A DNA stretch of 63,224 nt, filler included, from Folioceros fuciformis (Eukaryota): the NCBI GenBank assembly GCA_049999805.1. It is 35 parts of 35 records of this genome, joined end to end, with 100 filler letters (N's around TTAATTAATTAA, not from the genome) between each part and the next. Parts side by side here need not be neighbours in the genome. Positions count along the whole stretch, not along the records: positions 55,248 to 57,496 come from JBNGIO010007135.1; 34 more parts are not named here. The stretch is one strand, 5' to 3'. The notes under the pieces were generated by a model, which was not told the DNA's origin, made no database searches, and saw only the letters and a program-made list of their open reading frames with translations. Positions 23,687-59,050 of this stretch are shown one piece after another (positions within the stretch are counted from its first letter, which is position 1; each line of letters opens with the position of its first letter). Made by a program: the position numbers and the translations under genes.

Positions 23687-24771
23687 AAATCGAGGAGTGC
23701 GCAGGGGGCGCGGACCTCAGAGAACAGTGACAAGGAGTTCTCGGAAAGGAGTTTGTTTTGCTTGTGGAGAGCCGGGACATTACGCGAATGAATGCCCCAA
23801 TACTCAACAAACTTTGAATGTTGTTCAAGACAACCCACAGCCCCAAAGACTCAGGATTACAAAAGTATCCGGATCTGAAAATCCCAAATGACGGGATTGG
23901 CCACATGTTGCACAGGCTACATGTGGTGAGTCTCAAGATGCTGAGGACAGCATTATTCACAGGGCAGGTGGAGAGCTCATGTATATAGAAGGATGTGTGA
24001 ATCGTGAAGAAGCGAAGATGTTGCTTGATCTAGCAGCAACACATAATTTTATTTCTCCTGGCAGAGCAAGTAAGCTTGGTTTGACATGGGCTAGTATTTC
24101 AGAGCCATGTACAGTGAAACAAGCAAAAGGAAAGCTGCAGTTCTTAGGACAGCTAGAAAAAGTTCCTTTGCAGATAGGCAATTGGATAGGACAAGCAAGC
24201 TTCACAGTTGTAGATATGGATGATCATGAAATCATCTTGGGCTTAGAATGGATGAAGGCCAATAAGGTGTGTGTAGATGTGGACTCACGCACCATACAGA
24301 TCGTAGGAGATGAAAAGCACAAAGTGAGTTGTGTAGTTCTTGAGCATCAGCTTGGGCACAAGATTGATGAAGTCATCTCTAACAAAGAGCTCAAGCGTTG
24401 TGTCAAAAATGAAGAGGAACTCTATTTGTTGGTGTTGCAAGGACTAGTAGATGGTCTTGAGATGGAATCTCAGAAGCAACCAAAGATTCCAAAGGAGATA
24501 CAGGATGTCTTAGACGACTTTAAAGACTTAATGCCTACTGAGTTACCTCCTTTACCTCAACGGAGAGTTGTAGATCATGAAATTGATCTAAAGCCAAGAA
24601 GTGTACCGCCATCAAGAGCGCCATATAGATTGTCGCTAGATGAGCTTCAAGAATTGAAGAGACAAATGTCTAACTTATTAGCCAAGGGCTATGTTAGAGT
24701 CTCAAAATCCCCATTTGGTGCGCCAGTATTGTTTACGCGAAAGAAGAATGGAGGATTAAGGTTATGCTTGG
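23687..24771 (+). mobile_element. Ty3/gypsy (chromovirus-like) gag-pol fragment: zinc knuckle, aspartic protease, start of RT
   Basis: CFACGEPGHYANEC (CCHC knuckle); LLDLAATHNFIS...IILGLEWM (protease); DHEIDL...RAPYRLS...SKSPFGAPVLFTRKKNGGLRLC (RT start). Confidence 0.93.
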
Positions 24772-27380: not shown

Positions 27381-28378
27381 GCAAGAACTCCTTCCAGTCC
27401 TCACTGGGATCGAGGGGCTGAAGATGCAGACTGCTCATGAATTTATGGGACATGTGCAACTACTACAAGTGTTGGGTGATTGCGATTCGCCCTCTATCTG
27501 CCATTACAGCATCCTCAGGACAGTCCCGGCTCACCCGCAGCACCAAGTAGTCCAACTATCTATCATGCGCTCATAGGATTACAACACGATCAAGGACACA
27601 TAAGAAAGGGTAGTCCAACCACACTCGCTCATAGGATTACATACAATATTTCAAGCCTTTTGTGTAAGCCAAGAAGACTACACTAATATTAGTACAGTCT
27701 TAGAATGCAGACATCAGGCCCATGTATAGGTAAGCCAGCAAGCATGGAAACCTTCAGCCTTAAAATCTATTATTTCTATCACTCGAAGGACAGCTATCGT
27801 GAGAGCAACCGCTTGGAGACATCGCATCGCATTTGCAGACATGCCTTGAAATCCACTTGCAGACATGCNNNNNNNNNNNNNNNNNNNNNNNNNNNNNNNN
27901 NNNNNNNNNNNNTTAATTAATTAANNNNNNNNNNNNNNNNNNNNNNNNNNNNNNNNNNNNNNNNNNNNCTATTATCCTCTAGTGTGCTATCAAATTTTTT
28001 TATAGAATAAAAATATTAAATTAAATATTTAGTTTTTTTAATTATCTAATTTAAAAAAAAATCTATACCCCATTTGAGTATTTTAGTGGATTTAGGTGAT
28101 ATGGATGTGGAGTATGGATAGGCACGTGTAAATGAAATCACACAAGTGGTGTGTGCAGAAAAAGGTGTTGTTATTCTTCTATTTCTTAGGTTTTATGTAA
28201 TTTAAGAAATTAAACTAGAGTATGGGAAGATTTACAACTTTTGCATCTTGTAGAATTGGAATTATGCAAAACCAGAACAATGTTTCACAATTGATGTTAT
28301 CCAAAGGGCATGCATTGTACTTGTATATGACAACTTATAACAAAATAGGCCCGATTTGGACGTTTGTTAACCAGGAAG

Positions 28379-29713
28379 ATGGGATTTGCAGCCGTTTTTT
28401 CTATGTCCTGCTATCCCGTACTAATTGTGTTACTAACATGTGGGGTAGGAGCTATCATAGCTTTACCGCAGGTGAATGCATTTGATAAAAATGCACGTAA
28501 AAGTTTGAACAAGCTGGTTTTTTTAGTTTTTACACCAGCTCTAGTTTTCACAAAGCTGGCTAATGCGCTCACCTTGGAAAATCTATTTAAGTGGTGGTAC
28601 ATTCCATTTAATGTGATGATATGTTTTGCAATTGGAGCGAGCCTAGGATACGCTGTTGTGATTCTTTCCAAGCCGCCTCAACACTTGAGTCGCCTCACTA
28701 TAGCATCTTGCGCGGCCGGGAATGCAGGAAACTTGCCATTAGTTCTTATTCCTACACTGTGTTCTGACAAACGGAGCCCTTTTGGAGCTGCTAATGCTTG
28801 TTCTGATCATGCGATTTCTTATGTTTCGTTTGGGATGTGCGTCGCCATTATATTGACATGGACAGTAGTTTACAACATGTTGAAGCCTGAGGAAAGCCTT
28901 CCTACTGAAGGTCAAGCAAACTTTGGAAACCTTGAATTACAAGAAGGAAGGTATGAAACAATAGTGGCTGAAGCTTCGACAACCGTCTCTGTGGCAGATT
29001 CTACCTTTCCAAACTCCACTGAATTGAAACTGGAAGCTTTAGATATCGGTACAACCCATCCGGTATTATTAACGACTCAATGGCAAGAGACTCCTCCTCT
29101 GCAGATGTCTTCCTTGCCGACACTCCCACTTCGTGTTAGCTCGACAGTGATGGGTTTATCGTCCTTGTCACTTGCTTCTTTGAGCAATTTGCCGCCACTT
29201 CCACATGACAAGATTTTGAAACGAATTTTCACACCCCCGACCACTGCTGCCTTGCTTGGGTTTATAGTGGGCTCCATCCCGCCTTTGAAAGATTTGTTTT
29301 TTGCAGGACCCTTTTCCATTCTCATATCTTGTGCTAACTTATTTGGAGATGCTATGATTCCCGCAATGAACCTCGTATTAGGCGGAAACTTGTCTGAAGG
29401 TGCTACAGATTCAGACCTACAGCCCATTACAATTGCAGGAATTTGTGTTGTCCGATTAGTTGTGTTGCCCATAATTGGTCTTTTTGTAGTTCAAATGGCT
29501 GCATCACTAGGATTTTTGCTTCCCGAGGATAAGATGTTCCATTTTGTCTTACTACTACAATTCAGTGTGCCTAGTGCTATCAACATTGGTACCATTGCAC
29601 AACTACATGGCTATGGAGAGAAAGAGTCCTCAATTGTGTTGTTTTGGGGATACATATTGTCTGTTATCTCATTGACAATATGGATATCTATATATCTTTG
29701 GCTATTATTTTGA
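28379..29713 (+). CDS. PILS: PIN-LIKES (PILS) auxin transport facilitator, single exon, 444 aa
   Basis: LNKLVFLVFTPALVF, WWYIPFN, AAGNAGNLPLVLIPTLC..SPFG, central hydrophilic loop, PPTTAALLGFIVGSIP, GDAMIPAMNLVLGGNL, FHFVLLLQFSVPSAINIGTIAQL. Likely ATG at 28379. Confidence 0.93.
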   Translation: MGFAAVFSMSCYPVLIVLLTCGVGAIIALPQVNAFDKNARKSLNKLVFLVFTPALVFTKLANALTLENLFKWWYIPFNVMICFAIGASLGYAVVILSKPPQHLSRLTIASCAAGNAGNLPLVLIPTLCSDKRSPFGAANACSDHAISYVSFGMCVAIILTWTVVYNMLKPEESLPTEGQANFGNLELQEGRYETIVAEASTTVSVADSTFPNSTELKLEALDIGTTHPVLLTTQWQETPPLQMSSLPTLPLRVSSTVMGLSSLSLASLSNLPPLPHDKILKRIFTPPTTAALLGFIVGSIPPLKDLFFAGPFSILISCANLFGDAMIPAMNLVLGGNLSEGATDSDLQPITIAGICVVRLVVLPIIGLFVVQMAASLGFLLPEDKMFHFVLLLQFSVPSAINIGTIAQLHGYGEKESSIVLFWGYILSVISLTIWISIYLWLLF

Positions 29714-39704: not shown

Positions 39705-40409
39705 CATCTTGGCCTCGTGCCAGATGTCCTCGGCGATTTCAACAGCACTTCGCCACTTGTCTTGACTGTTGGGCCATAAGCCTGAAGGTGGGGGTGTCTC
39801 ACCATACAGGAGTTTGAAGGGAGTAACCCTTGTGGCTGCGTGCTTCAAGGAATTGTACGCATACTCCAATAAGGGAAGGAGTTCCTCCCACTTTGTCCGC
39901 TTCTTGTGTGTGAAGTGAAGAAGCATGTCTTCTAACACCTGATTCTGCTTCTCTGTCTGGCCGTCCGTCTCTGGGTGATAGGCTGAAGACATGTTCTGTT
40001 TGATGCCTAGTGTGTCCGTAAAGTTCCGCCAAAACCCGAAGGTGAATTTCGCGTCCTTGTTCGACACAATGTCCTCTGGTGTTTCGTGTAATCGGAAGAT
40101 TTCACGGACAAAAAGGGTGGCCAGTTTGGGGGCAGTGATGGTCGAGGTGATTGGAATGAAGTGGCAAACCTTGGAAAATCTATCTGTCACCACCCAAATG
40201 CTGTCCTTACCAGAGCGGGTACGAGGTAGGTGTGTAATGAAGTCCATGGCTATTGACTGGAAACGGCCACTGGGGATTTGGAGGGGTTGGAGTAGACCTG
40301 GGTATTTCTGATGGCTAGGTTTGGCTTGTTGGTAGGATTGACAGGAGCGCACCTACTCTATGCAATCGGAGCGCATGCCTTCCCAGTGGAAATGTTCCCG
40401 AACCTAAAG
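39705..40409 (-). mobile_element. Ty3/gypsy integrase fragment, decayed
   Basis: EHFHWEGMRSDC..VRSCQSYQ, GLLQPLQIP, SIAMDFITHLP, IWVVTDRFSK, SSAYHPETDGQTE, LEYAYNS. In-frame stops near the 5' end. Confidence 0.92.
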
Positions 40410-48752: not shown

Positions 48753-49851
48753 GGCCGGCGCCGTGGGGGCCGACCACGATCGCGGCGCCCGAGAACAGCT
48801 CCCTCGTCGCTTCCATGCTCCATTCCTCCCGGTCGGAGAAGAGGCGGACGTGTTTGGAGCCGATCTCGGCCTGCAGGCGCGCCAGGAGCTCGTCGTGCTG
48901 CACAATCCCGCGAGTGCCTTTGCGCTCCTCCAGCACCAGGTACCAGGACCCGGGACCGGCCCACGCGCTGCGGGGGACACGGAAGCGGTGGTCCCGGATA
49001 TGCCGCCACACGCTCCGGCTGGATTTGCCGCAGCTGGGACTGAGCGCCACCAACAGCATGTCGGCGTGCACCAGATTGTCTTCCTCCAGCATCTGCACAG
49101 GTCGTCCGTCGAGCCCCCGCGGTTCTCCTAGCAGCCGGAAGAAGGTGGAGACGAAGGGGAAGTCCCGGCGAGCCAACAGCAGCGGCGCGGACGGCAGGGC
49201 CTCTATCATGGGAAAGAGGATCGCAATGCGTGCCATCAGCTCCACCAGGCCGTGGAACTGGCTGCTGGCGTAGAAGGAGCAGAGGTTGATGCCGAGCGGG
49301 ACGCGGATCACCTTGCCCCTGTTCTCGCCTTGCCGACTTAGCGGTACCAATTGGCGCTGCTCCCAGCACCCGCCTTTGAGGAAGATGTGGCGAGAATCGA
49401 ACACCTGAGCGTGGACGTTGGTGTAGACGTTGGCCAGGAACACCACCGCGCCGATATACTGCTGGTAATTGGTCACCGTCTTCTCCCCGAACCGGGGCGT
49501 GATGAAGGCATCCTCCGTCGGCAGCGACGCCGGCTCCACCACGTCCATGAACTTCGGGTTCCAGCACATCGCCTCCAGCTTCTTCATGCCCAGATCTTGG
49601 CCTTGCTTCTGGCACCTCCACAGCACCGGGCACGGCACCGTCCCGAATTTTGCCTGGAGCCCGACCACCACCGGGCCACGATGCGTGCTGCAAGATTCCA
49701 TCACCGGCACCTTCCTGGTGTCCACCACCGTCAGACCCGAGGGCGCAAGATCGTCCTCCAGGTCCTCTCGAGCCGGGGATGGCCAAGACAGATTCCAATG
49801 CGCCCACTGGCTCTTCCAGCTGCGCCTGTTGGGGACCTCGTCGCTCAGGCT
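48753..49851 (-). CDS. Glycosyltransferase family 61 (DUF563)-like protein, internal fragment
   Basis: QFHGLVELMARI, EERKGTRGIVQHDELL and the GT61 signature ELFSGAAIVVGPHGAG at the contig end. GC-rich with no visible intron. Confidence 0.78.
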
Positions 49852-49951: not shown

Positions 49952-51300
49952 CATCGAGTCCGTGGAGGCGGCCTTGAACCAGAGCATCCAGGATGCGTTA
50001 GCGCTCAACGGCACCAACCCGCAGCTGTCCGGCGCGCTCTCCGTCTGCTTCGAGGTGAGTTGCGGGTGTGTCGGGGTTGTGGCTTGTGGGCGGAACCCGG
50101 GTCTGACGGGTGTTGGGTTTGGCTTTTGCTCTTGCTCTTGCTTTTGCTTACTCCCTGCCTGGTGGTGGCTGCAGACGCTGGAGACGGCGCTGGAGCAGCT
50201 GCAGAAGTCCGTGGTGCAGCTTTCGTCGCTAAGCCTGACCAATGTGGAGGATCAGCTGGACGACGTGCACACCTGGCTGGACGCGTCGGCTACCTTCCAT
50301 GACACCTGCTTGGAGGAGATCATTGCGGCGGTGAATCCGGGCTACTTCGGCAACACCACGGACATCACCAACCCGCCCACGGACCCCGTGAGTCAGAATG
50401 GGGAGAACCTGAAGCAACTCTACTCCATCCTCGTCCACCTGGCGAGTTACATCACCGACTACGCCTCCAGCCTGCCCTCCCTGCCAGTTCAGCTGCCGTC
50501 GCTGCACCTTCGGAGGCTACTGTCTGCGGACGAGGAGAGCAGTGTTAGCAGGAGCCAGGGGGCATGGTACGATTTCCAGGACGAGACATCCGGGGACACC
50601 AGCTGGGTTTCCAGGCACGGGATTGCCAGGCGTTTGCTGCAGGTCGCCACCAAGGCCCCCGACGCGGTTGTGGCTTCCGATGGGTCGGGGAAGTACGCGT
50701 CCATCCAGGATGCCGTGGACGCTGCGCCTGATAACAGTAAGACTCTGTGGGTGATCTACATCAAGGCCGGCACCTACACGGGGCAGGTAGTGCTGGGCAA
50801 GTCCAAGAAGAACATCGGCTTCAGGGGTGACGGTATCGACAAGACCGTCCTCACTGCCAAGGAGAGTGTGGAGGGCACTGGCACTACCACATTCAAGTCT
50901 GCCACCCTGGGTGAGTTGTGCTTGATGTGACTGAGTCAGGTTGCGTGGATGCGCCCCACCTGGTTCTCGCCTCTTCTCACACATCCTCTCGCCTGTGTTG
51001 CAGCCGTCAATGGTGATGGATTCGTGGGTACCGCCTTCACTGTCAGGAACACGGCCGGAGCTGCCAACCACCAGGCTGTGGCCCTCCGGGTCTCTGCTGA
51101 CCTTAGTGCCTTCTACCAGATCAAGGCCTCAGGCTTCCAAGACACTTTCTACTGCCACAGCTTTCGTCAGTTCTACAGCAACTGCATTATAGAGGGCACT
51201 GTGGATTTCATGTTCGGGAATGCGGCTGCCATTATTCAGTCCTCCACCCTCCTGGCGGGGGTCGGACTGCTTGGGCAGCAAAACACCTTCACTGCGCAGG
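49952..51300 (+). CDS. Pectin methylesterase with PMEI pro-domain, truncated at both ends; exons <49952-50054, 50175-50910, 51004->51300
   Basis: PMEI motif DVHTWLDASATFHDTC; two RRLL processing motifs; VVASDGSGKYASIQDAV, IYIKAGTY, TTFKSAT, QAVALRV, GFQDTFY, EGTVDFMFGNA. Confidence 0.95.
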
Positions 51301-53964
51301 NNNNNNNNNNNNNNNNNNNNNNNNNNNNNNNNNNNNNNNNNNNNTTAATTAATTAANNNNNNNNNNNNNNNNNNNNNNNNNNNNNNNNNNNNNNNNNNNN
51401 TCGCTGAGCTGTGTATTGATGGAGCTTGCTTGTCTCCTATCATCGACTCATAGCCTGGCCTGCTTTCCACATGCCGGGAGAGGCTTCACTTGCCGTGGTT
51501 GAACAGTGACAGCGTCTGACACCCGCCGCGCCTTGCTTCGTGCGGCACATCGTGGAGCCAGGATGGCTGTGGGGCCGAGCCGCCGAGAGGAACGGGGCAC
51601 CGGCCATCCACATTGCACAGAGCGTTACGGGCAAAGAGAAATCAGAGATGGATCGGATAGTGTTTTTCTGGACAATGTTACGATGTTTTCGGAGGTTTTT
51701 TTTTTTTATGGAGGAGCACACTGTTTGCCGCTGCCGCTGCGGATGGGGTAGACTGCTGCTTTGTCGCTTGCATCTGCCGGGTCCGGCACAAGGGATTTGT
51801 CCGCTGTCAGGGAGATTAGCTGGCTGCCTGCCTGCCTAACAGTCTGCTCATCACGTCCCGTGACGTCTCTCCCGGTTGCTGTGTCTGTGCGCTTGTTGTT
51901 CTTGTATCGGGTGACTGGGAACTGGAGTTTGAACGGCAGGCGTTAATGAGGCAGGCCAGTTCAGCACCGGTGCCGAGCATCTTCCGGGGCTTGTCCTTTG
52001 CGAAGGAGTTGTTGCAGGATTTGAGGCTTCGCTGCACTCGTATTATTTACAGTTTGTGAGACTGCGGCAGGGGCAGCGACATGCCGTGTCTGCACTTGGT
52101 CTCCAACTGCTTTGGAGCATGTGTCCCAAATGTTTCCTCCTTCCATGGGATTTCATTCTGTATGTACAGCAGTCGGACTGGACAAAGCTCCTTCCTTCCT
52201 AAACTCCTAACATGACGTGTTTTGTTGTTGTTGTGTGATATCCAGGTTTAATATATTTTTATATCTATATATACATGTTCATACATGTATGGCCCTCTCA
52301 GGAGGTGAATACGTCCACCTGTAGACAGAACTTGTTGGTGAAAAGCTAGCACAGACAAACTCCCCAGGTTTATGTGCTTCGGGTTTGTTTTTGTCGTCGC
52401 CGGTGATGGCCTCGGGTGCAATTGAGCGGAAGCAACAATTGACGGAGGCACATGCTGTCGTTCAAAGCATGGCCCTTGAACACAATGGCAGAATCTGATT
52501 CGGAGACATTTGAAGCGGGCACATTGGCCAGTCCCTGAATGCAACGTTTCTAGCTTGCCAATGACGAAAGCTGGTCCATGTAGATACATTTGTGGCGGCC
52601 ACATACTTCCAGAAACTGAAGATTCTTGGTCACGGTGACATGTGCAATAGATTATGCCAACATCCTCTGATGACAGTCATGCCAAAAAGTTAGAACCCGA
52701 CGGGCAGTACTGTAGCAAAATCTCCAGCATAGTGCCCCTGTCCAGGGACACTCGCTTGCATGACTGATTCCCTCAGCATCTTGATCCAGATACAACCAAA
52801 TTACAGAACTCTATTTTGTAAATTGTTGGAGCTCTTGCCTACACCAGATACCCTGTTGTGATGACCTTACAGACAAGCCGAGCTACAGTGAAGTCTGTTG
52901 CACACCATTTACCCCCTTACAAGGAGCTTGTTATGTGCATCGGAACTCGACGATCTGCAGGACTGAACCGTCTCTGGGTTTGAACTCTACAGCAAACTTG
53001 TTCAGTATGCGTGTCCAACGCATTGATGACGGCCGTGCGAGCTCCGAGGAGTGAGATACAGTATGTATGTATGTGACGGGGAGCTGTCTGACAGACCAGG
53101 TAATGTTAGAAAGATTCTGGGAATAGCCAGTGCGGAAAGGAAAGCAGAATTTGTAGTCAACAGGGGTATCACCGTCTGCAGCAAAAGGATCCATTTCCTG
53201 CCGACATATCTGCCTATGTATCTACACATGTATGTGCTACAAACGCTGGGGCTTCGAGCTCCCAGAAGGGCGTCTCCTCTTGGCCGCGCTGCCTGTCCTG
53301 CAAAGGCATATAACTTTCAACACACGACTAGAAAATGGAAGAAGCAAGCTGGGTTTTCTACCCAGCTTTCACAGTTTTGGGAACCGCGGAAATATCTGAC
53401 ACCAAATGCAAAATCTGAGAATAGAAAATGCGAACGAGCTCGGCCTGGCCACCGAGGCAGTGGGCTCGTTCCGCGTGCTGCTTGCCTTTAAGACCCTGGG
53501 CNNNNNNNNNNNNNNNNNNNNNNNNNNNNNNNNNNNNNNNNNNNNTTAATTAATTAANNNNNNNNNNNNNNNNNNNNNNNNNNNNNNNNNNNNNNNNNNN
53601 NCCCAACCCCCCCCATGGCCCGTGAGCTCTTACCCTCCTCCGACTCTCCTCTGCTTTTTCCGGTAAAACGCGCGGTTGGCAGGTGTTATGAGGGATTGAG
53701 ACGCTCCCTGTTCAGCGTGTGACTTGGTTTTACTCAACCGGAACTCCTCTCGTGATCGGAAATGGACTCGCCGCCTCATGTCATGTGTTACGCATTAACC
53801 CACTCCACACTGCACACTGCACACAGCACACTGCACACTGCACACGCACACCAGGAGAGCGGATAAGAATGAGAGGGCAGGAAAGAGCAGACTTGGAACC
53901 AGAGACTGAACTGAGGGGCAAATCTCAAAGTAATCAGCTAGTTTTTGTGGTCTGCGCTACGGTC

Positions 53965-54053
53965 CTGGTGCAGGTGCAGGTGCAGGTGCGGGTCCAGGTC
54001 CAGGTCCAGGTCCAGGTCCAGCTGCAGCTGCAGCTGCTGCTGCTGCTGCTGCT
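53965..54053. repeat. Compound microsatellite (GGTGCA)n(GGTCCA)n(GCTGCA)n(GCT)n
   Basis: Visible directly. Further (GCAAAA)n at about 54386 and (GACG)n at about 54657. Confidence 0.85.
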
Positions 54054-56144
54054 GAGTGGCTGCAAAAGCTGGGTTTCCTCACACATGGATGGGGATGTGC
54101 TGCTCTGCCAAGTCTCACCAACCCCAGCCTTACTCCCCACACACTGCGCCACAGCCTTCCCTTCCGTTCCCTCCCCTCCCCTCCCCCCCATCCCTTTTCG
54201 TGCACAACAAGGCAGGTTTGATGCAGGCCAGGAACATAACACGGATACGTATGTACTTCTTGCCCAGCCCCTCCGACCTCGTAAGTCATGCATTGGCCTT
54301 AGGCTACTGGTGGCTTGGTGTCTGTGTGTGTGACCTGGTGGGCTGGGGGAAGGAGGATACGATGCTTTGCCAAAAGCTTGCAACAGCAAAAGCAAAAGCA
54401 AAAGCAACAGCACGAAAAAAAAGGGGAAAAAAAAAAAAAGAGACAGGGATGTCAACGCAGTAGCAGCGCTAGCTAGCCTAGCAAGTGGTTTGCGCCATGA
54501 ACCAGACAAATGCCCAAAAGCCAGCCATCCCATACGTCTCCTGACGCTGGCACATGGACATGACAAATACTTCCCGCATACGCGGCGACAAGGCATGAGA
54601 CGAGAACGGGCCCGTCGTGACGTGACCGCTTCACGAATCACGGCCACATACGGAGGGACGGACGGACGGACGGACGGACGGCAACAGTTGCGTATGCGAC
54701 AGGCGTGGTCCATTTCTCAGTGAGAGCCTGGGCCCCCACCGGACGGTCCCCCCAGGAGCCTGGACGTCGGGGTACACTCCCGCGTTATTAGTGCCGCTAA
54801 TGAGCCTGTCAGCCTGACGGTCCCTGACGGCCTGGGGTCGTCATCACCCGCTGCCCGGCCGCGCATTCACGCTTCATACGGTCGGATAGATTCGCCGGTT
54901 TACCTACGGGTGAAACCGGAGCCCGTATCTTCAGGTTATGTACACCTGGTTTTCTCAGCTTTGTGCCACACGGCGGAACCCGGCATACGGGTATTTTTGA
55001 GTTATGTTGGCCGGGCCTATGTCGTGAGCCCATAACGTACTCTCGGACTCCTCGATGGTGTATAAATCCCGCTCGGACTCAACTCGACTCATACCTCTTC
55101 TAAAGCCAAGCAAACTGCAGGCCCAGTTCGGGCGGGCTGGCCGTCTCNNNNNNNNNNNNNNNNNNNNNNNNNNNNNNNNNNNNNNNNNNNNTTAATTAAT
55201 TAANNNNNNNNNNNNNNNNNNNNNNNNNNNNNNNNNNNNNNNNNNNNACAAGCGTCTGCAAAAGCAACCCCCGGCATGAATACCAAAGTCTGCATACGCA
55301 ACCTCCGCGGCGTGGGTGCGAGCGTCTGCATAAGCAACCTCCCAGCATTGCCTGTGTCACACATGCAACGGAAGTTCAATTTGAATCAAACCATCAAAGA
55401 GCTTATACTATGATAATGCAAACAGATCACTAACACGGCTTCGTTCTCCAAGACTTTGGGTTGTCAGCCTTCCGCGCAGTCCAGGGCAAAATGTCCTGGC
55501 AGGGATGAGATTGGCTTGTGGCACCTCAAGTCCTGTCCTGCTAAGGAAACCGTTCCTCCGGCCAAGAAATTGCAAACGTTGTCAAACCAGGGGATGACGA
55601 ATGACGAGCCAGCCTGTACTCCTGACAGATCTGGTGCCGGCGGATTATTTAAGACGAGAAACATGGTTACCGACCGCAAGGATGACCAAAGTAAGTCCAG
55701 CTCTCGTCAGCGCGTGCACGTACTGGGTGGTAAACTGTGCGTGACTCTCTGCAAACAGCTTAAAACACATTGCTCCCGTAGCACCATGTGATTCTTTAGC
55801 TCAAGCCCCTTCAACCAGCTCTGTGCGGGCACATCAAACGCATCTCACGTACTTGGGGAGGTTTGATACCTGAGAAGGGAATTGCCAGTCACAGAACAAC
55901 ACGTTACACATTAGTACGAGGGAAGTTTAGCGTGCTGTTTGCACTAACTTGCATCGAAGTTGCATAATAGGAAGTTAAACCATCAGCCTGCAATAACCTG
56001 CTGGTGACATACCTTAAAATTGCAAGGTCGAATAAACCCCATTCAACATGGTTCAGAGACTTTGGGATCTTGTCTGGACGTGGTCATACTACTGGTACGA
56101 ATACGGGCACGAGGCAGCTGGGCGCCAGTCATGTTTCAACCACG

Positions 56145-57496
56145 CTATAAGCTCCAGGTGGATCTTACCATAAAAGCCGGTGTTCGAGACTGGCTGTCTG
56201 CGATATACAAGATTCCAGGTTGCACGACAAACCCTGGCGCACAACTCCACCTTAAAAAGGCCTCCATCTGGACCTGAGATTGCCCAGGATCACTGCCCTC
56301 ATCACATTTCAAGGAGGTCCAGAAGTCAGGCTTGGACAAGCCCACAGATAAACCTCCCCCAATTTTGGATCCCGGAGGACTTGCAACACTCAGCAGCCAT
56401 TGTAATTGCTTCTTCTCCTGAAGCCAGTCGCTGCAATCCACCTGAGCCCATCCACCAACATTAACTGGCCCAACATCTGCTTCAGCGGCAAGTGCAAATG
56501 ACCGCATTGAAGACCCTTGATTGTCAACTAGCCCAGTATCTAACGAAGAAGTGCTCCAGTTCACAACCTGGCTCTGGCCAGCAGATCCATTTGACGTAGG
56601 TAGGGACATCGTTGCGACTGGGGACTTTATTCTACTCAAAACCAATGGCCCCATCTCACTCCAGTGCAAACCGTGGGTCGAGGGAAAGGGCGGGCTGGGC
56701 CAGAGCCGATGAAGTGCAGATACTGAAAATGCCATGAAGTCACAGGGCACCACAGTGACCTGAGCAAGACTGCTCAAGCACAGTGGAGTTCCTGAGTCCG
56801 AGGACTCCAGACTGGAAAACATATTTTCCCATCCTCCGAGATACTGTGACACCGACCAAACAGATCTGATGGCCTTGTAAATGGCTCCAATCCCTGACCC
56901 CTTGCAGTGACCATGAAGTGCAGGCCTGTGGCTGAAAGAGGTGAGTCCAACGTCCTGAAGAGCACACAACCCACCACGATCAAACCATGAAAGGGCAGGA
57001 GAAATTCACACACCCAACAACCCAATACCAACAAACCCACCTCCACAGGCTCCGCTGACTGCATCAGATCACGACTGTCTCCTCCAAGAGGAGCAACAGA
57101 CAAAACAACTCGGTCACTCAGTTCAGCAGTGTACGCCACTTTCCGCAACGACACAGGGCCACCCAGCGTAGCACCAGCACCGCCTGCTACCTGCCCAGCC
57201 CCGCATTCCGTGATCAGCCTATCCTTCTCCCTCACAGGAGTCTCCAATCTCAACTTCACCTCCAACCCAGTCAACATCCCTGCCTGTTCCAGCGCACATC
57301 GAGCACGCCGGCTGTAACTATCCCGCACAACCACCACAGCGGCTCCAGCATTCACCTCCCCCGTCACCTTCGTCTTCCCCAGCCCAGTCGAGCTACCAGA
57401 GCTCTTGCCTCCCCGCCGGAAACCCGTGTGCAGCTCCAGCTTGTCCACCCGCTCCCGGATCCGCAGGGAATCGGAGAAGAGCTCCCGCTGAAGCCT
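56145..57496 (-). CDS. At3g52610-like uncharacterised plant protein, predicted beta-barrel resembling cyanobacterial OprB/SomA-type porins; 5'-truncated; exons >57496-57041 and 56954-56145
   Basis: RLQRELFSDSLRIRERVDKLE, KTKVTGEVN, LETPVREKDRLITE, SLRKVAYTAELSD, GGWAQV, QMEAFLRW...VQPGILY...FMVRSTWSL*. An 86-nt GT-AG intron keeps the frame. Confidence 0.8.
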
Positions 57497-58179
57497 NNNN
57501 NNNNNNNNNNNNNNNNNNNNNNNNNNNNNNNNNNNNNNNNTTAATTAATTAANNNNNNNNNNNNNNNNNNNNNNNNNNNNNNNNNNNNNNNNNNNNATGT
57601 TGCGCCTTTACTGTACATGCAGGCGCGGACTCCGACCGTTTTCGCATGAACCTTTCACGAAAAATTTCGTTTATTGAAGTCATGGCCTTGCAATTGCCGT
57701 CCAGTTGAGCAGGAGGGTAGAGCATTCAACTTCCAGAGCGGCGTTTTTTGCGCTCCAGGCTCATGGCAAACGGCTCAGCTGTCGCTGCGATGCTTGCGCT
57801 GCCTGACGAAGACGCTTCCGCGCTACCCTGCTGCTGTAGCTCAGAAGCGAGCTCCAAAGTTGTCATTGCCCTGATTTAGATGTAACTTCTCAGGTGATCG
57901 CAATAGAAGAACTGTGGTAGAATGCTAACTATTCCGACAGATGCCTTGTCAGATGCAGGCGTTTCATCAGCAAACGCACGTATGTACCACCAAGAGGAGA
58001 GGAGCTTCGGCGCGAGGATGTAGAACAGCCAGGACGTGATAAAGCCGTTGTTAGGCCCGTCCCTTCTTTGTTTCTATTGCATTGTTTGATCGTAAAGTAG
58101 AGTGAAGTATTCTGTGTTCCTAAGAACGACACAGGGTAGATTTCCTGTAACTTACCACAGTGGTGCACGGTGTTGGCAG

Positions 58180-59050
58180 CGGTGGAACTCGTCAAGAAGA
58201 AGTCTTTCCTAGACACTGTATCTGTTCATCTGGATACTGGTAGACATGGCATTGACACTTCTCATGGGGCACTCGTGAAACGAAACTCTTTGCAAGATGG
58301 TGAAAGCTGGGGGCCTAGGTCGAAACCTGGTCTTGAGCTTCGTTCTGAATTGGCTTGTAGGCCCCGCAATATGACATGTCTTGTCTGGGCCACGCTCTTG
58401 GATCTTGAGCACTACAGGTCAGGAGCCATTCTAGTTGGCATTGCCAGATGCATTGCCATGGGTCTCATGTGGATAGACCTGGCCAAAGGGAATGGGCAGC
58501 TGCGCGAAACTATCACTTCTGTAATTGCAGATGGTACTGTACACTCGACTGTCGCTTTTCTACCTAAACGTTGTTTCCTAGGCAATGGTGTTGATGTCAG
58601 TACCTGCGAAATTGCACGAAGCGTGCTGCTTCTCCTGGGCACACCATTCTTTGCTGGCATCGTCACAAGGTACTCCTTTCGTTGCAGCATTGGGCGGAAG
58701 TGGTATCACACGAAGTTCATTCCCTTCATCGCTCCCTGGGCTCTCGTTGGTTTGCTCGTTACAGTTTTTGTGATTTTCTCTATTCAAGCGAATCAGATCA
58801 TCAACACCATCGACAATGTGGCAAGAGTAACTGTCCCAAAGCTACGCTACTTAACAGTTGTTTGGTTCTCAGTATGCTGGTATCTGAGCATCCCCATCCG
58901 CCTAGTCAATTACTGCATCCAGCAACAGTTTTGAGTTGGCCATAGCCGTAGCTGTGGGGAGTTTTGGTGTAGACTCACAATAATCATAAACTGCGACAAT
59001 CGACCCTTTAATTGAAGTGCCTGTCTTGTTGATTTTAGTGTCTGGGACAT
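58180..59050 (+). pseudogene. ACR3: ACR3 arsenite efflux transporter pseudogene
   Basis: Collinear motifs in shifting frames: SFLD/YLFIWIL, SFVLNWLVGPA, WATLLDLEHYRSGAILVGIARCIAM, LQMVLYTRLSLFYLNVVS, SVLLLLGTPFFAGIVTR, PWALVGLL, TASSNSFELAIAVAVGSFG, PLIEVPVLL. At least four frameshifts, in-frame stops and an internal deletion. Confidence 0.88.

Follow-up and report, generated by a model that had tools for sequence, protein, structure and literature searches.

A partial nuclear gene of Folioceros fuciformis points to a streptophyte-wide family descended from cyanobacterial porins

Introduction

Solute passage across the chloroplast outer envelope and the source of its channels are still unsettled questions in the field. 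The plastid outer envelope descends from the cyanobacterial outer membrane, and Omp85/Toc75 and LptD-like proteins are outer-membrane barrel lineages that can be traced from the cyanobacterium to the chloroplast. We know of no characterised outer-envelope protein (OEP) channel with a clear cyanobacterial porin ancestor. In this study, we analysed a stretch of 63,224 nucleotides from Folioceros fuciformis (NCBI GenBank assembly GCA_049999805.1), hereafter the window, in which a porin-like locus occupies the contig at positions 55248-57496 (JBNGIO010007135.1). An earlier note on the sequence had read this locus as a plant nuclear gene that follows cyanobacterial outer-membrane porins from end to end. 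We conclude, with a probability of about 0.7, that the locus carries the 3' portion of a nuclear gene of streptophytes encoding a descendant of the major cyanobacterial porins, which would act as a channel of the plastid outer envelope.

The window consists of 35 contigs of 1.0-4.4 kb with a G+C content of 0.34-0.65, joined by N spacers that carry TTAATTAATTAA in the middle. Genes that stand side by side in the window are therefore not physically linked.

Structure of the porin-like locus

The minus strand of positions 56145-57496 holds the 3' 421 codons of the gene, arranged as two coding exons, one intron, and a stop codon (Table 1). The exons lie in two overlapping minus-strand open frames, one of which starts with RLQRELFSDSLRIRERVDKLE at the contig end and the other of which ends with VRSTWSL. 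All the peptides quoted in the earlier note were found on the minus strand where it had placed them: RLQRELFSDSLRIRERVDKLE, KTKVTGEV, LRLETPVREKDRL, and LRKVAY share the first frame, and QMEAFLRW, VQPGILY, and VRSTWSL share the second, immediately before the stop codon. According to strand mapping, the first exon encodes the end of a stalk (RLQRELFSDSLRIRERVDKLE), barrel strands 1-5, and the start of loop 3; its product is 41-53% identical to relatives. The last exon encodes loop 3, strands 6-16, a plant-specific loop (WPSPPFPSTHGLHWSEMGPL), and the C-terminal strand FMVRSTWSL.

The intron between the coding exons was first predicted by alignment with homologues and was later found skipped in contigs of public sequencing runs. 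The 86 nucleotides, with CT..AC ends on the plus strand, are missing from one contig of run X1 and one of run X2, which belong to two studies; the X1 sequence is identical to the window and the X2 sequence is 90-95% alike. The kind of these runs is off record and RNA is a guess; should they be DNA, the joined sequence would represent a processed copy. Intron skips fit transcripts, so we read the joined contigs as splicing with this caveat. The view that the locus is a plant nuclear gene was borne out by the GT..AG intron, the joined contigs, and the plant relatives, which together describe a spliced streptophyte gene. Record 4 of the X1 contigs spans 55434-55865 and 56009-56953 and omits 143 nucleotides of the 3' untranslated region (UTR); a cut shifted by +4 fits equally well. 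Another 3' UTR intron of 83 nucleotides is possible at approximately 55351-55434 (minus strand), which was skipped in one short X1 contig and retained in another.

The 5' end of the gene is absent because the contig stops at 57496. A contig of run X1 extends 397 nucleotides past this position. In run X2, the first 30 letters past it read in frame as RRSEIAALR before RLQ, which is the conserved stalk sequence of the family; the coding sequence thus continues upstream and is lost only by the contig end. A tblastn search of the whole window with ten full-length relatives found no upstream exon elsewhere (sole extra match, E-value 0.34).

Table 1. Features of the porin-like locus in window coordinates.
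Feature	Position	Strand	Description and basis
Exon, 5'-partial (contig end)	57041..57496	-	152 codons; open frame, alignment to relatives
Spliceosomal-type intron, GT..AG	56955..57040	-	86 nucleotides, not a multiple of three; frame change between exons
Last coding exon	56148..56954	-	269 codons; open frame, homologue matches, C-terminal half of the porin profile
Stop codon TAG	56145..56147	-	Relatives stop at the same aligned position
3' UTR	55434..56144	-	Run X1 contig
3' UTR intron, GT..AG	55870-56012	-	143 nucleotides; GTATGT at 56012-56007, AG at 55871-55870
N-terminal alpha-helical stalk, retained part	57422..57496	-	25 residues; hhalign of the stalk, models of relatives
Predicted 16-stranded beta-barrel region	56151..57370	-	Residues 43-420 of the window protein, intron inside

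An uncharacterised streptophyte family

Over its full length, the 421-residue joined product can be aligned to the last ~440 residues of proteins from streptophyte algae (Mesostigma, Chara, Spirogloea, Mesotaenium, and Closterium), bryophytes (Calypogeia, Riccia, Sphagnum, Ceratodon, and Physcomitrium, the last with two paralogues), lycophytes and ferns (Selaginella, Ceratopteris, and Adiantum), gymnosperms (Ginkgo, Cryptomeria, and Welwitschia), and angiosperms (Amborella, Victoria, Tasmannia, Mikania, and Ananas). The closest relative is from Calypogeia (47% identity), and the window's sequence has no closely related representative among the relatives found. An exhaustive phmmer search of 1.84 billion representative sequences with the last exon returned 47 proteins at E ≤ 1e-3, none of them a cyanobacterial porin. 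Every named match among the 47 is a streptophyte protein labelled hypothetical or uncharacterised, in agreement with the expectation that the family is usually annotated as such. One of the 47, P0049 (1406 residues, 11 short stretches, E 5.5e-5), resembles a repetitive protein. Word-indexed protein searches listed streptophyte matches throughout; they scored only the 8000 candidates with the most shared words and are therefore uninformative on cyanobacterial or algal relatives.

In a Pfam scan of 39 family members, no family rose above noise, and the two exons of the window gave noise only (MccV, E 0.33). The gathering score of the OprB family (PF04966, 22.9 bits) was not reached, and the two exons had no OprB match at E ≤ 10. 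Two members carry what look like annotation artefacts: the Tasmannia protein is named 'GDSL esterase/lipase' in RefSeq and matched no lipase family in Pfam, and the gene model of the Chara protein (1331 residues) is fused to a retrotransposon-derived part. The earlier note had called the family At3g52610-like, an unverified label. At3g52610 appears as an 'unknown protein' in a passage of one paper (PMC3399700), and an excerpt of a recent preprint calls it 'AtNAT-like', with a soybean homologue given as a predicted N-acyltransferase.

Family members occur in long and short forms. Long forms of 600-1030 residues are found in non-seed plants and algae; the algal ones have an S/T-rich, acid-poor start, and most long forms carry a glycine-rich block. 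They also share an upstream block, G-[VI]-x-D-W-L-x-x-L, about 50-60 residues before the stalk motif LxRLQRE, which is present in ferns, liverworts, and Closterium and looser in Mesostigma (FFSWFQSLF). Short forms of 379-466 residues, beginning 35-50 residues before LxRLQRE, are those of seed plants. The stalk is conserved from Mesostigma to the angiosperms. A near-invariant motif found only in plants, WPSPPxPSxxGLHWSEMGPL (window 56650-56710, minus strand), opens the loop between strands 9 and 10 and has no cyanobacterial counterpart; the profile alignment has a gap there (relatives P0001-P0027).

Homology to cyanobacterial porins

The first exon alone matched NF033921 (por_somb), the NCBIfam model of cyanobacterial porins, with 11.9 bits and an E-value of 0.063 over profile positions 82-225. 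This match was a hint only, and the family was therefore tested as a profile. NF033921 matched 24 of the 39 members at E ≤ 1, with a best E-value of 1.7e-12; relative P0019 scored 25.3 bits. In the reverse direction, a profile of the plant family (A2, 39 rows) was searched against the six frames of five cyanobacterial genomes picked by a 16S primer scan: Trichodesmium, Scytonema, Chlorogloeopsis, Calothrix, and a Gloeobacterales metagenome-assembled genome (MAG). NF033921 finds many porin genes in each of them. The plant profile gave 34 matches spread over all five genomes (best E-value per genome, 1.6e-10 to 1.2e-6), and all 34 lay inside NF033921-positive porin genes. Profile positions 17-150 matched the part of the porins that follows the SLH domain, and positions 320-435 matched their C-terminus. 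When the search was widened to an even sample of the cyanobacterial phylum, 14 of its 41 genomes matched at E ≤ 1e-3, the best of them with 1.7e-17. Outside this phylum, ten genomes had no match to the plant profile at E ≤ 10; one of these, Zobellella, has a true PF04966 OprB.

The comparison of profiles with hhalign, run at family level against 30 cyanobacterial porins, gave a probability of 99.7% and P 1.3e-26 over 388 aligned columns, far beyond the controls (P 0.13 with the porin alignment reversed and 0.18-0.74 with its columns shuffled in five versions). Since the aligned columns cover plant positions 16-440 and porin positions 149-561 of 579, the match spans from the helix after the SLH domain to the last strands. 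The parts also matched separately, each at its expected, collinear place: the stalk with P 6.9e-9 (porin columns 149-203), the barrel with P 2.6e-19 (294 columns), and the C-terminal third with P 1.2e-8. The plant sequence thus follows the cyanobacterial porins from stalk to last strand, as had been proposed. A language-model feature search of the ESM Atlas pointed the same way: eight streptophyte clusters came first, and the fifteen matches that followed (score 0.95) were cyanobacterial 'porin family protein' clusters with OprB.

The cyanobacterial motifs that the earlier note had listed proved genuine. They are seen in the consensus of the 30 porins, in the same order and paired with the plant motifs in the alignment: LQRLQEEF..LRGRvD.LE, TTTKL.GEV, R.rLnF.tSFTGkD.L, id.l.Y, and hlE.fYr..IsITPg. 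Both sides share LxRLQxEF, TxLxGEV, FxFETxxRxxD (LNFxTSFTGKD in the porins), an NP.. loop 3, QxEAF (HLEAFY), xQPG (ITPG), and a last strand of the type R-[ST]-[ST]-[WF]-x-[LF]. In this strand, the window reads FMVRSTWSL and the porins read G-T-L-R-T-T-F-x-F, with an RTTFxF end in 18 of the 30.

Alternatively, the stretch could stem from bacteria that contaminated the assembly, or amphipathic strands and a coiled coil could resemble porins by chance. The contigs are short and of varied G+C, and single sequences match the porin model only weakly, with an E-value of 0.063. However, the GT..AG intron is removed in contigs of two runs, relatives at 40-50% identity lie on megabase contigs of many plant genomes, none of the 34 genome-wide matches falls outside a porin gene, and the P value of the profile match lies far from those of its controls. 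We regard this alternative as already refuted. The comparisons strongly support the plant family as a homologue of the cyanobacterial porins with the same stalk-plus-barrel core. The parent group would be that of NF033921 and of CBP in TCDB (1.B.23), within the OprB superfamily. Its members include the porins named SomA/SomB and those of the Slr1841 type, and NCBI names the NF033921 relatives iron uptake porins.

The N-terminus and the SLH domain

The SLH domain is described as the defining feature of the cyanobacterial porin family in part of a 2016 survey (PMC4827864). A Pfam scan of the 39 family members at E ≤ 1 found no SLH domain, NF033921 matches start at profile position 62 or later, past its SLH part, and the N-terminal extensions of 25 long or full-length relatives showed no likeness to porin N-termini (P 0.25-0.44). 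On these sequence comparisons, the plant family has lost the SLH peptidoglycan-binding domain. The earlier note had asked whether an SLH remnant is kept: none is detectable in the relatives, and the gene's own 5' part lies outside the window. The coiled-coil or helical linker directly before the barrel is still present, as indicated by the hhalign match of the stalk and by helices in both structural models described below. The 25 stalk residues of the window are the counterpart of the coiled-coil linker that joins the SLH domain to the barrel in cyanobacterial porins. Because its NF033921 scores fall below the cut-off and the SLH domain is undetected, the plant family stands outside NF033921 by that family's criteria.

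Predicted fold

AlphaFold2 was run on family alignments that held no bacterial sequences. The model of the Riccia member (466 residues; mean predicted local distance difference test score (pLDDT) 79.7, predicted template modelling score (pTM) 0.71) has helices at 4-23 and 26-61 followed by 16 strands. That of the short form from Amborella (445 residues; pLDDT 81.9, pTM 0.71) has helices at 13-36 and 46-78, also followed by 16 strands. In the P0019 model, all 16 strands can be placed without gaps on residues 43-420 of the window protein (180 of 413 aligned residues identical). Connections are long after odd strands and 2-5 residues long after even strands, as in bacterial porins; this alternation sends the long loops to one face of the barrel and leaves the short turns and the stalk at the opposite face. 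Short helices occur in the loop after strand 5, which is the segment conserved with cyanobacteria (NPLQ..GLT.FS..GP), and the loop after strand 9, of about 40-60 residues, is of low confidence over most of its length.

In a Foldseek search with the Riccia model, the top matches were all bacterial porins, with OmpM1 of Veillonella parvula first (3.1e-10) and OprB sixth. VIA-align placed Pseudomonas putida OprB (4gey) first for the same model, with Z 24.1 and a root-mean-square deviation (rmsd) of 4.1 over 307 residues, two units above the next chain. In an unbiased search of 48,161 chains with the Amborella model, thirteen 16-stranded porins scored Z 19.8-22.2; among them, OprB (4gf4) ranked third in a tie (Z 21.9, rmsd 2.8, 244 residues). 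Other barrels scored lower: 18-stranded sugar porins Z 18-19, Omp85/TPS-type barrels 13-17, and Tom40 11.9. The prediction, a 16-stranded porin with OprB (PF04966) as top or tied-top match (Z 22-24), agrees with the barrel that the earlier note had anticipated. The modelled structure says '16-stranded bacterial-type porin', and the sequence says 'cyanobacterial type'.

The 17 aligned proteobacterial OprB sequences show no helical stalk, and their match to the cyanobacterial porins starts at porin column 202, past the stalk. OmpM1 (8byt/8bym/8bys; Z 20.9-21.3) aligns into the pre-barrel segment of the plant model (model 66-466 versus chain 103-420); it differs from the plant family in having an SLH domain. 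The plant profile had no match in two Negativicutes genomes (Selenomonas and Dialister).

Evolutionary origin

An initial quick tree with 72 rows drew L161, a long proteobacterial row, next to the plant clade. Four proteobacterial rows were removed, namely L161, L156, and L151, flagged as long, and L153 (end branch 1.19); of the 24 named plant rows, 11 were also taken out before a careful maximum-likelihood tree was built from 57 rows and 509 columns under LG+C20, with 13 plants in addition to the window's sequence and 200 bootstrap trees. The plants formed one clade with support of 100/100. The porins of the Gloeobacterales MAG branched first, with the proteobacterial outgroup (99/99), and the plant clade lay among the remaining cyanobacterial porins; a cyanobacterial clade without the plants occurred in 0 of 200 bootstrap trees. 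The quick tree agreed apart from the placement of L161. The phylogeny with cyanobacterial homologues thus nests the plant clade inside the cyanobacterial porins, and a cyanobacterial source of the plant gene is well supported by these sequence data. The order inside the plant clade (Mesostigma, the window's sequence, Zygnematophyceae with Chara, and embryophytes) follows the species tree, so the gene was present in the streptophyte ancestor and vertically inherited.

How the gene arrived is a separate matter. It may have entered the streptophyte stem by a later horizontal transfer from a cyanobacterium, or from another bacterium with CBP-type porins, and not by endosymbiotic transfer. All named relatives are streptophyte, and no chlorophyte, red-algal, or glaucophyte relative appeared among the 47 exhaustive matches or the 39 profile-search matches listed. 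An origin in the plastid ancestor fits this absence poorly unless the other lineages lost the gene or diverged past detection. The plant clade also lies among crown-group porin paralogues, with a weakly supported sister (80/21). Nevertheless, the exhaustive single-sequence search missed the cyanobacterial porins as well and could equally miss divergent algal relatives, the family was already in Mesostigma at the base of the streptophytes, with a gene tree that follows the species tree, and branching after Gloeobacterales is what is expected of a plastid-ancestor gene. On this balance we consider a later transfer rather unlikely, and the gene may have come with the plastid.

Proposed location and function

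To our knowledge, eukaryotic transmembrane beta-barrels are confined to the outer membranes of mitochondria and plastids. From this confinement and the cyanobacterial ancestry, we infer that the protein may reside in the outer envelope of the plastid. Provided that the bacterial topology is retained, the long loops would point to the cytosol, and the stalk and the turns would lie on the side of the intermembrane space. Loop 3, with its conserved NPLQ..GLT.FS..GP segment, would be the constriction loop, and the protein would probably be an oligomer, like its bacterial relatives. It would let small solutes or inorganic ions pass by diffusion, and such a channel is by analogy the most likely function; as a whole, the proposal of a plastid channel is plausible. 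Part of one article (PMC10095879) connects relatives from cyanobacteria with the uptake of sugars and the transport of metals.

The N-terminal extension of algal, bryophyte, and fern forms may be a bipartite, polyglycine-containing targeting signal like that of Toc75, and the seed-plant forms, which start just before the stalk, lack a presequence, as do most outer-envelope barrels. Toc75 is presented as a barrel with a cleavable bipartite transit peptide in a section of a 2022 review (PMC8836251), and a role of polyglycine in Toc75 sorting is given in an extract of another paper (PMC5147994). With Toc75 and with OEP21, OEP24, OEP37, OEP40, and OEP23, the plant family would share the membrane and the general role, and with Toc75 also the presequence of the long forms, including its glycine-rich block. 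It differs from them in that its 39 members matched no Pfam family above noise, and from Toc75 in barrel type: the Omp85/TamA-type barrels scored Z 13-17 against the Amborella model, compared with 20-22 for porins.

Insertion into the outer membrane of mitochondria, or of both organelles, would be another possibility for the barrel. The 2022 review states, in one section, that beta-barrels can mistarget between the two organelles in vitro (PMC8836251), and the short seed-plant forms have no presequence. The ancestry, though, is cyanobacterial, the fold is that of a bacterial 16-stranded porin (Z 20-22 for porins versus 11.9 for Tom40), and the algal forms start with an S/T-rich, acid-poor segment and then a glycine-rich block, as in Toc75. 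A mitochondrial location is accordingly very unlikely.

Instead of or besides forming a channel, the protein could act as a tether through its conserved stalk, a possibility to be taken seriously. In the strict form of this view, the barrel would be mainly a structural anchor to a partner in the intermembrane space or inner envelope, or to plastid peptidoglycan, and not an open channel. In architecture, the family comes closest to the 'outer membrane attachment porins', with OmpM1 first in Foldseek; the stalk was kept from Mesostigma to the angiosperms despite the loss of SLH; and algae, bryophytes, and ferns have long extensions where seed plants have short forms. Against a mere anchor, these extensions bear no likeness to SLH and are mostly of low complexity, and both loop 3 and the barrel show conservation with relatives that form channels. 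Anchor and channel are also compatible roles, and OmpM1 is reportedly both tether and channel. We therefore favour the channel and regard a barrel that only anchors as unlikely, if still worth serious consideration.

A broader reading would combine the two roles. Streptophyte plastids may still use the ancestral cyanobacterial major porin and its stalk as channel and tether, with the extension replacing SLH as the link to the wall or inner envelope where plastid peptidoglycan persists (streptophyte algae, bryophytes, lycophytes, and ferns), and shed in seed plants. We hold this extended proposal to be doubtful. If true, it would add a third cyanobacterium-to-chloroplast barrel lineage after Omp85/Toc75 and LptD-like proteins, and the first solute porin.

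Several results weigh against the reading of the locus as a porin descendant with a role at the plastid. Every NF033921 match falls far under the curated cut-off of 100 bits, and Pfam OprB matches 1 of the 39 members, at E 0.08. In the even sample, 27 of the 41 genomes of the cyanobacterial phylum were unmatched; these are mostly small and include all those of 1.6-2.9 Mb. The plant family ends in L, and 30 of 30 cyanobacterial porins end in F. Directly compared with 17 proteobacterial OprB sequences, the plant family gave no significant match (hhalign P 0.038, 35 columns); cyanobacterial porins matched the same OprB set with P 5.2e-12, and the plant family is thus joined to the OprB superfamily via its cyanobacterial branch. 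Structure alone fails to single out OprB because the Amborella model ties with general porins, and the models are those of relatives (Riccia and Amborella), not of the window's own joined protein. The plant stem is very long (2.1 changes per site) in a tree that takes in five cyanobacterial genomes only. The location, topology, oligomeric state, and conductance are predictions throughout.

Novelty and significance

No paper linking the plant protein to cyanobacterial porins was found in open-access full text, a scope that leaves subscription journals and supplements outside. The available portion of the 2016 survey of 76 outer-membrane pore families gives no plant members for TCDB 1.B.23 or 1.B.19 (PMC4827864), and in the accessible text of a 2025 preprint on OEP origins only OEP21/24/37/40 and JASSY are treated and OprB is unmentioned. 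The word porin is likewise unused in the available sections of the 2022 review of the outer-membrane proteome (PMC8836251).

What is new here is a branch of the cyanobacterial porin family that is encoded in the nucleus, lacks SLH, and extends across the streptophytes, as delineated by profile comparison. It shares with the cyanobacterial porins the helical stalk followed by an OprB-type barrel, and differs from them in lacking a signal peptide, in bearing introns, and in its plant-only loop and terminal residue. Plants seem to have kept the porin of the chloroplast ancestor under the label 'uncharacterised protein'. As a conserved, expressed, streptophyte-wide porin descendant, the family is a candidate for a missing outer-envelope channel and also for a relic of an outer-membrane tether, and it can now be given a proper annotation.

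Other sequences in the window

A profile scan of the window frames found plant-type genes on contigs near the porin-like locus. An open frame of the sodium/bile acid symporter family (SBF) lies at 58140-58931 on the plus strand (E 9e-25), on the contig adjoining that of the porin-like locus. Two plant cell-wall genes are present: a pectin methylesterase inhibitor (PMEI) pro-region, after which a pectinesterase domain begins (49953-50927, plus strand), and, on the preceding contig, a fragment of a GT61 glycosyltransferase (48754-49851, minus strand). An intronless open frame of 454 residues at 28349-29710 (plus strand) covers the whole Mem_trans profile (PF03547, auxin-efflux-carrier/PIN-like) with an E-value of 4e-67. 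Pieces of long terminal repeat (LTR) retroelements were seen at 23892-24770 (plus strand) and 39705-40352 (minus strand), with an RVP_2 aspartyl protease (5.7e-12) and an integrase core, rve (2.3e-7). A simple repeat of hexanucleotide type occupies 53934-54100, and its frames read VQVQVQ, GAGAGPGPGP, or poly-A, poly-Q or poly-L.

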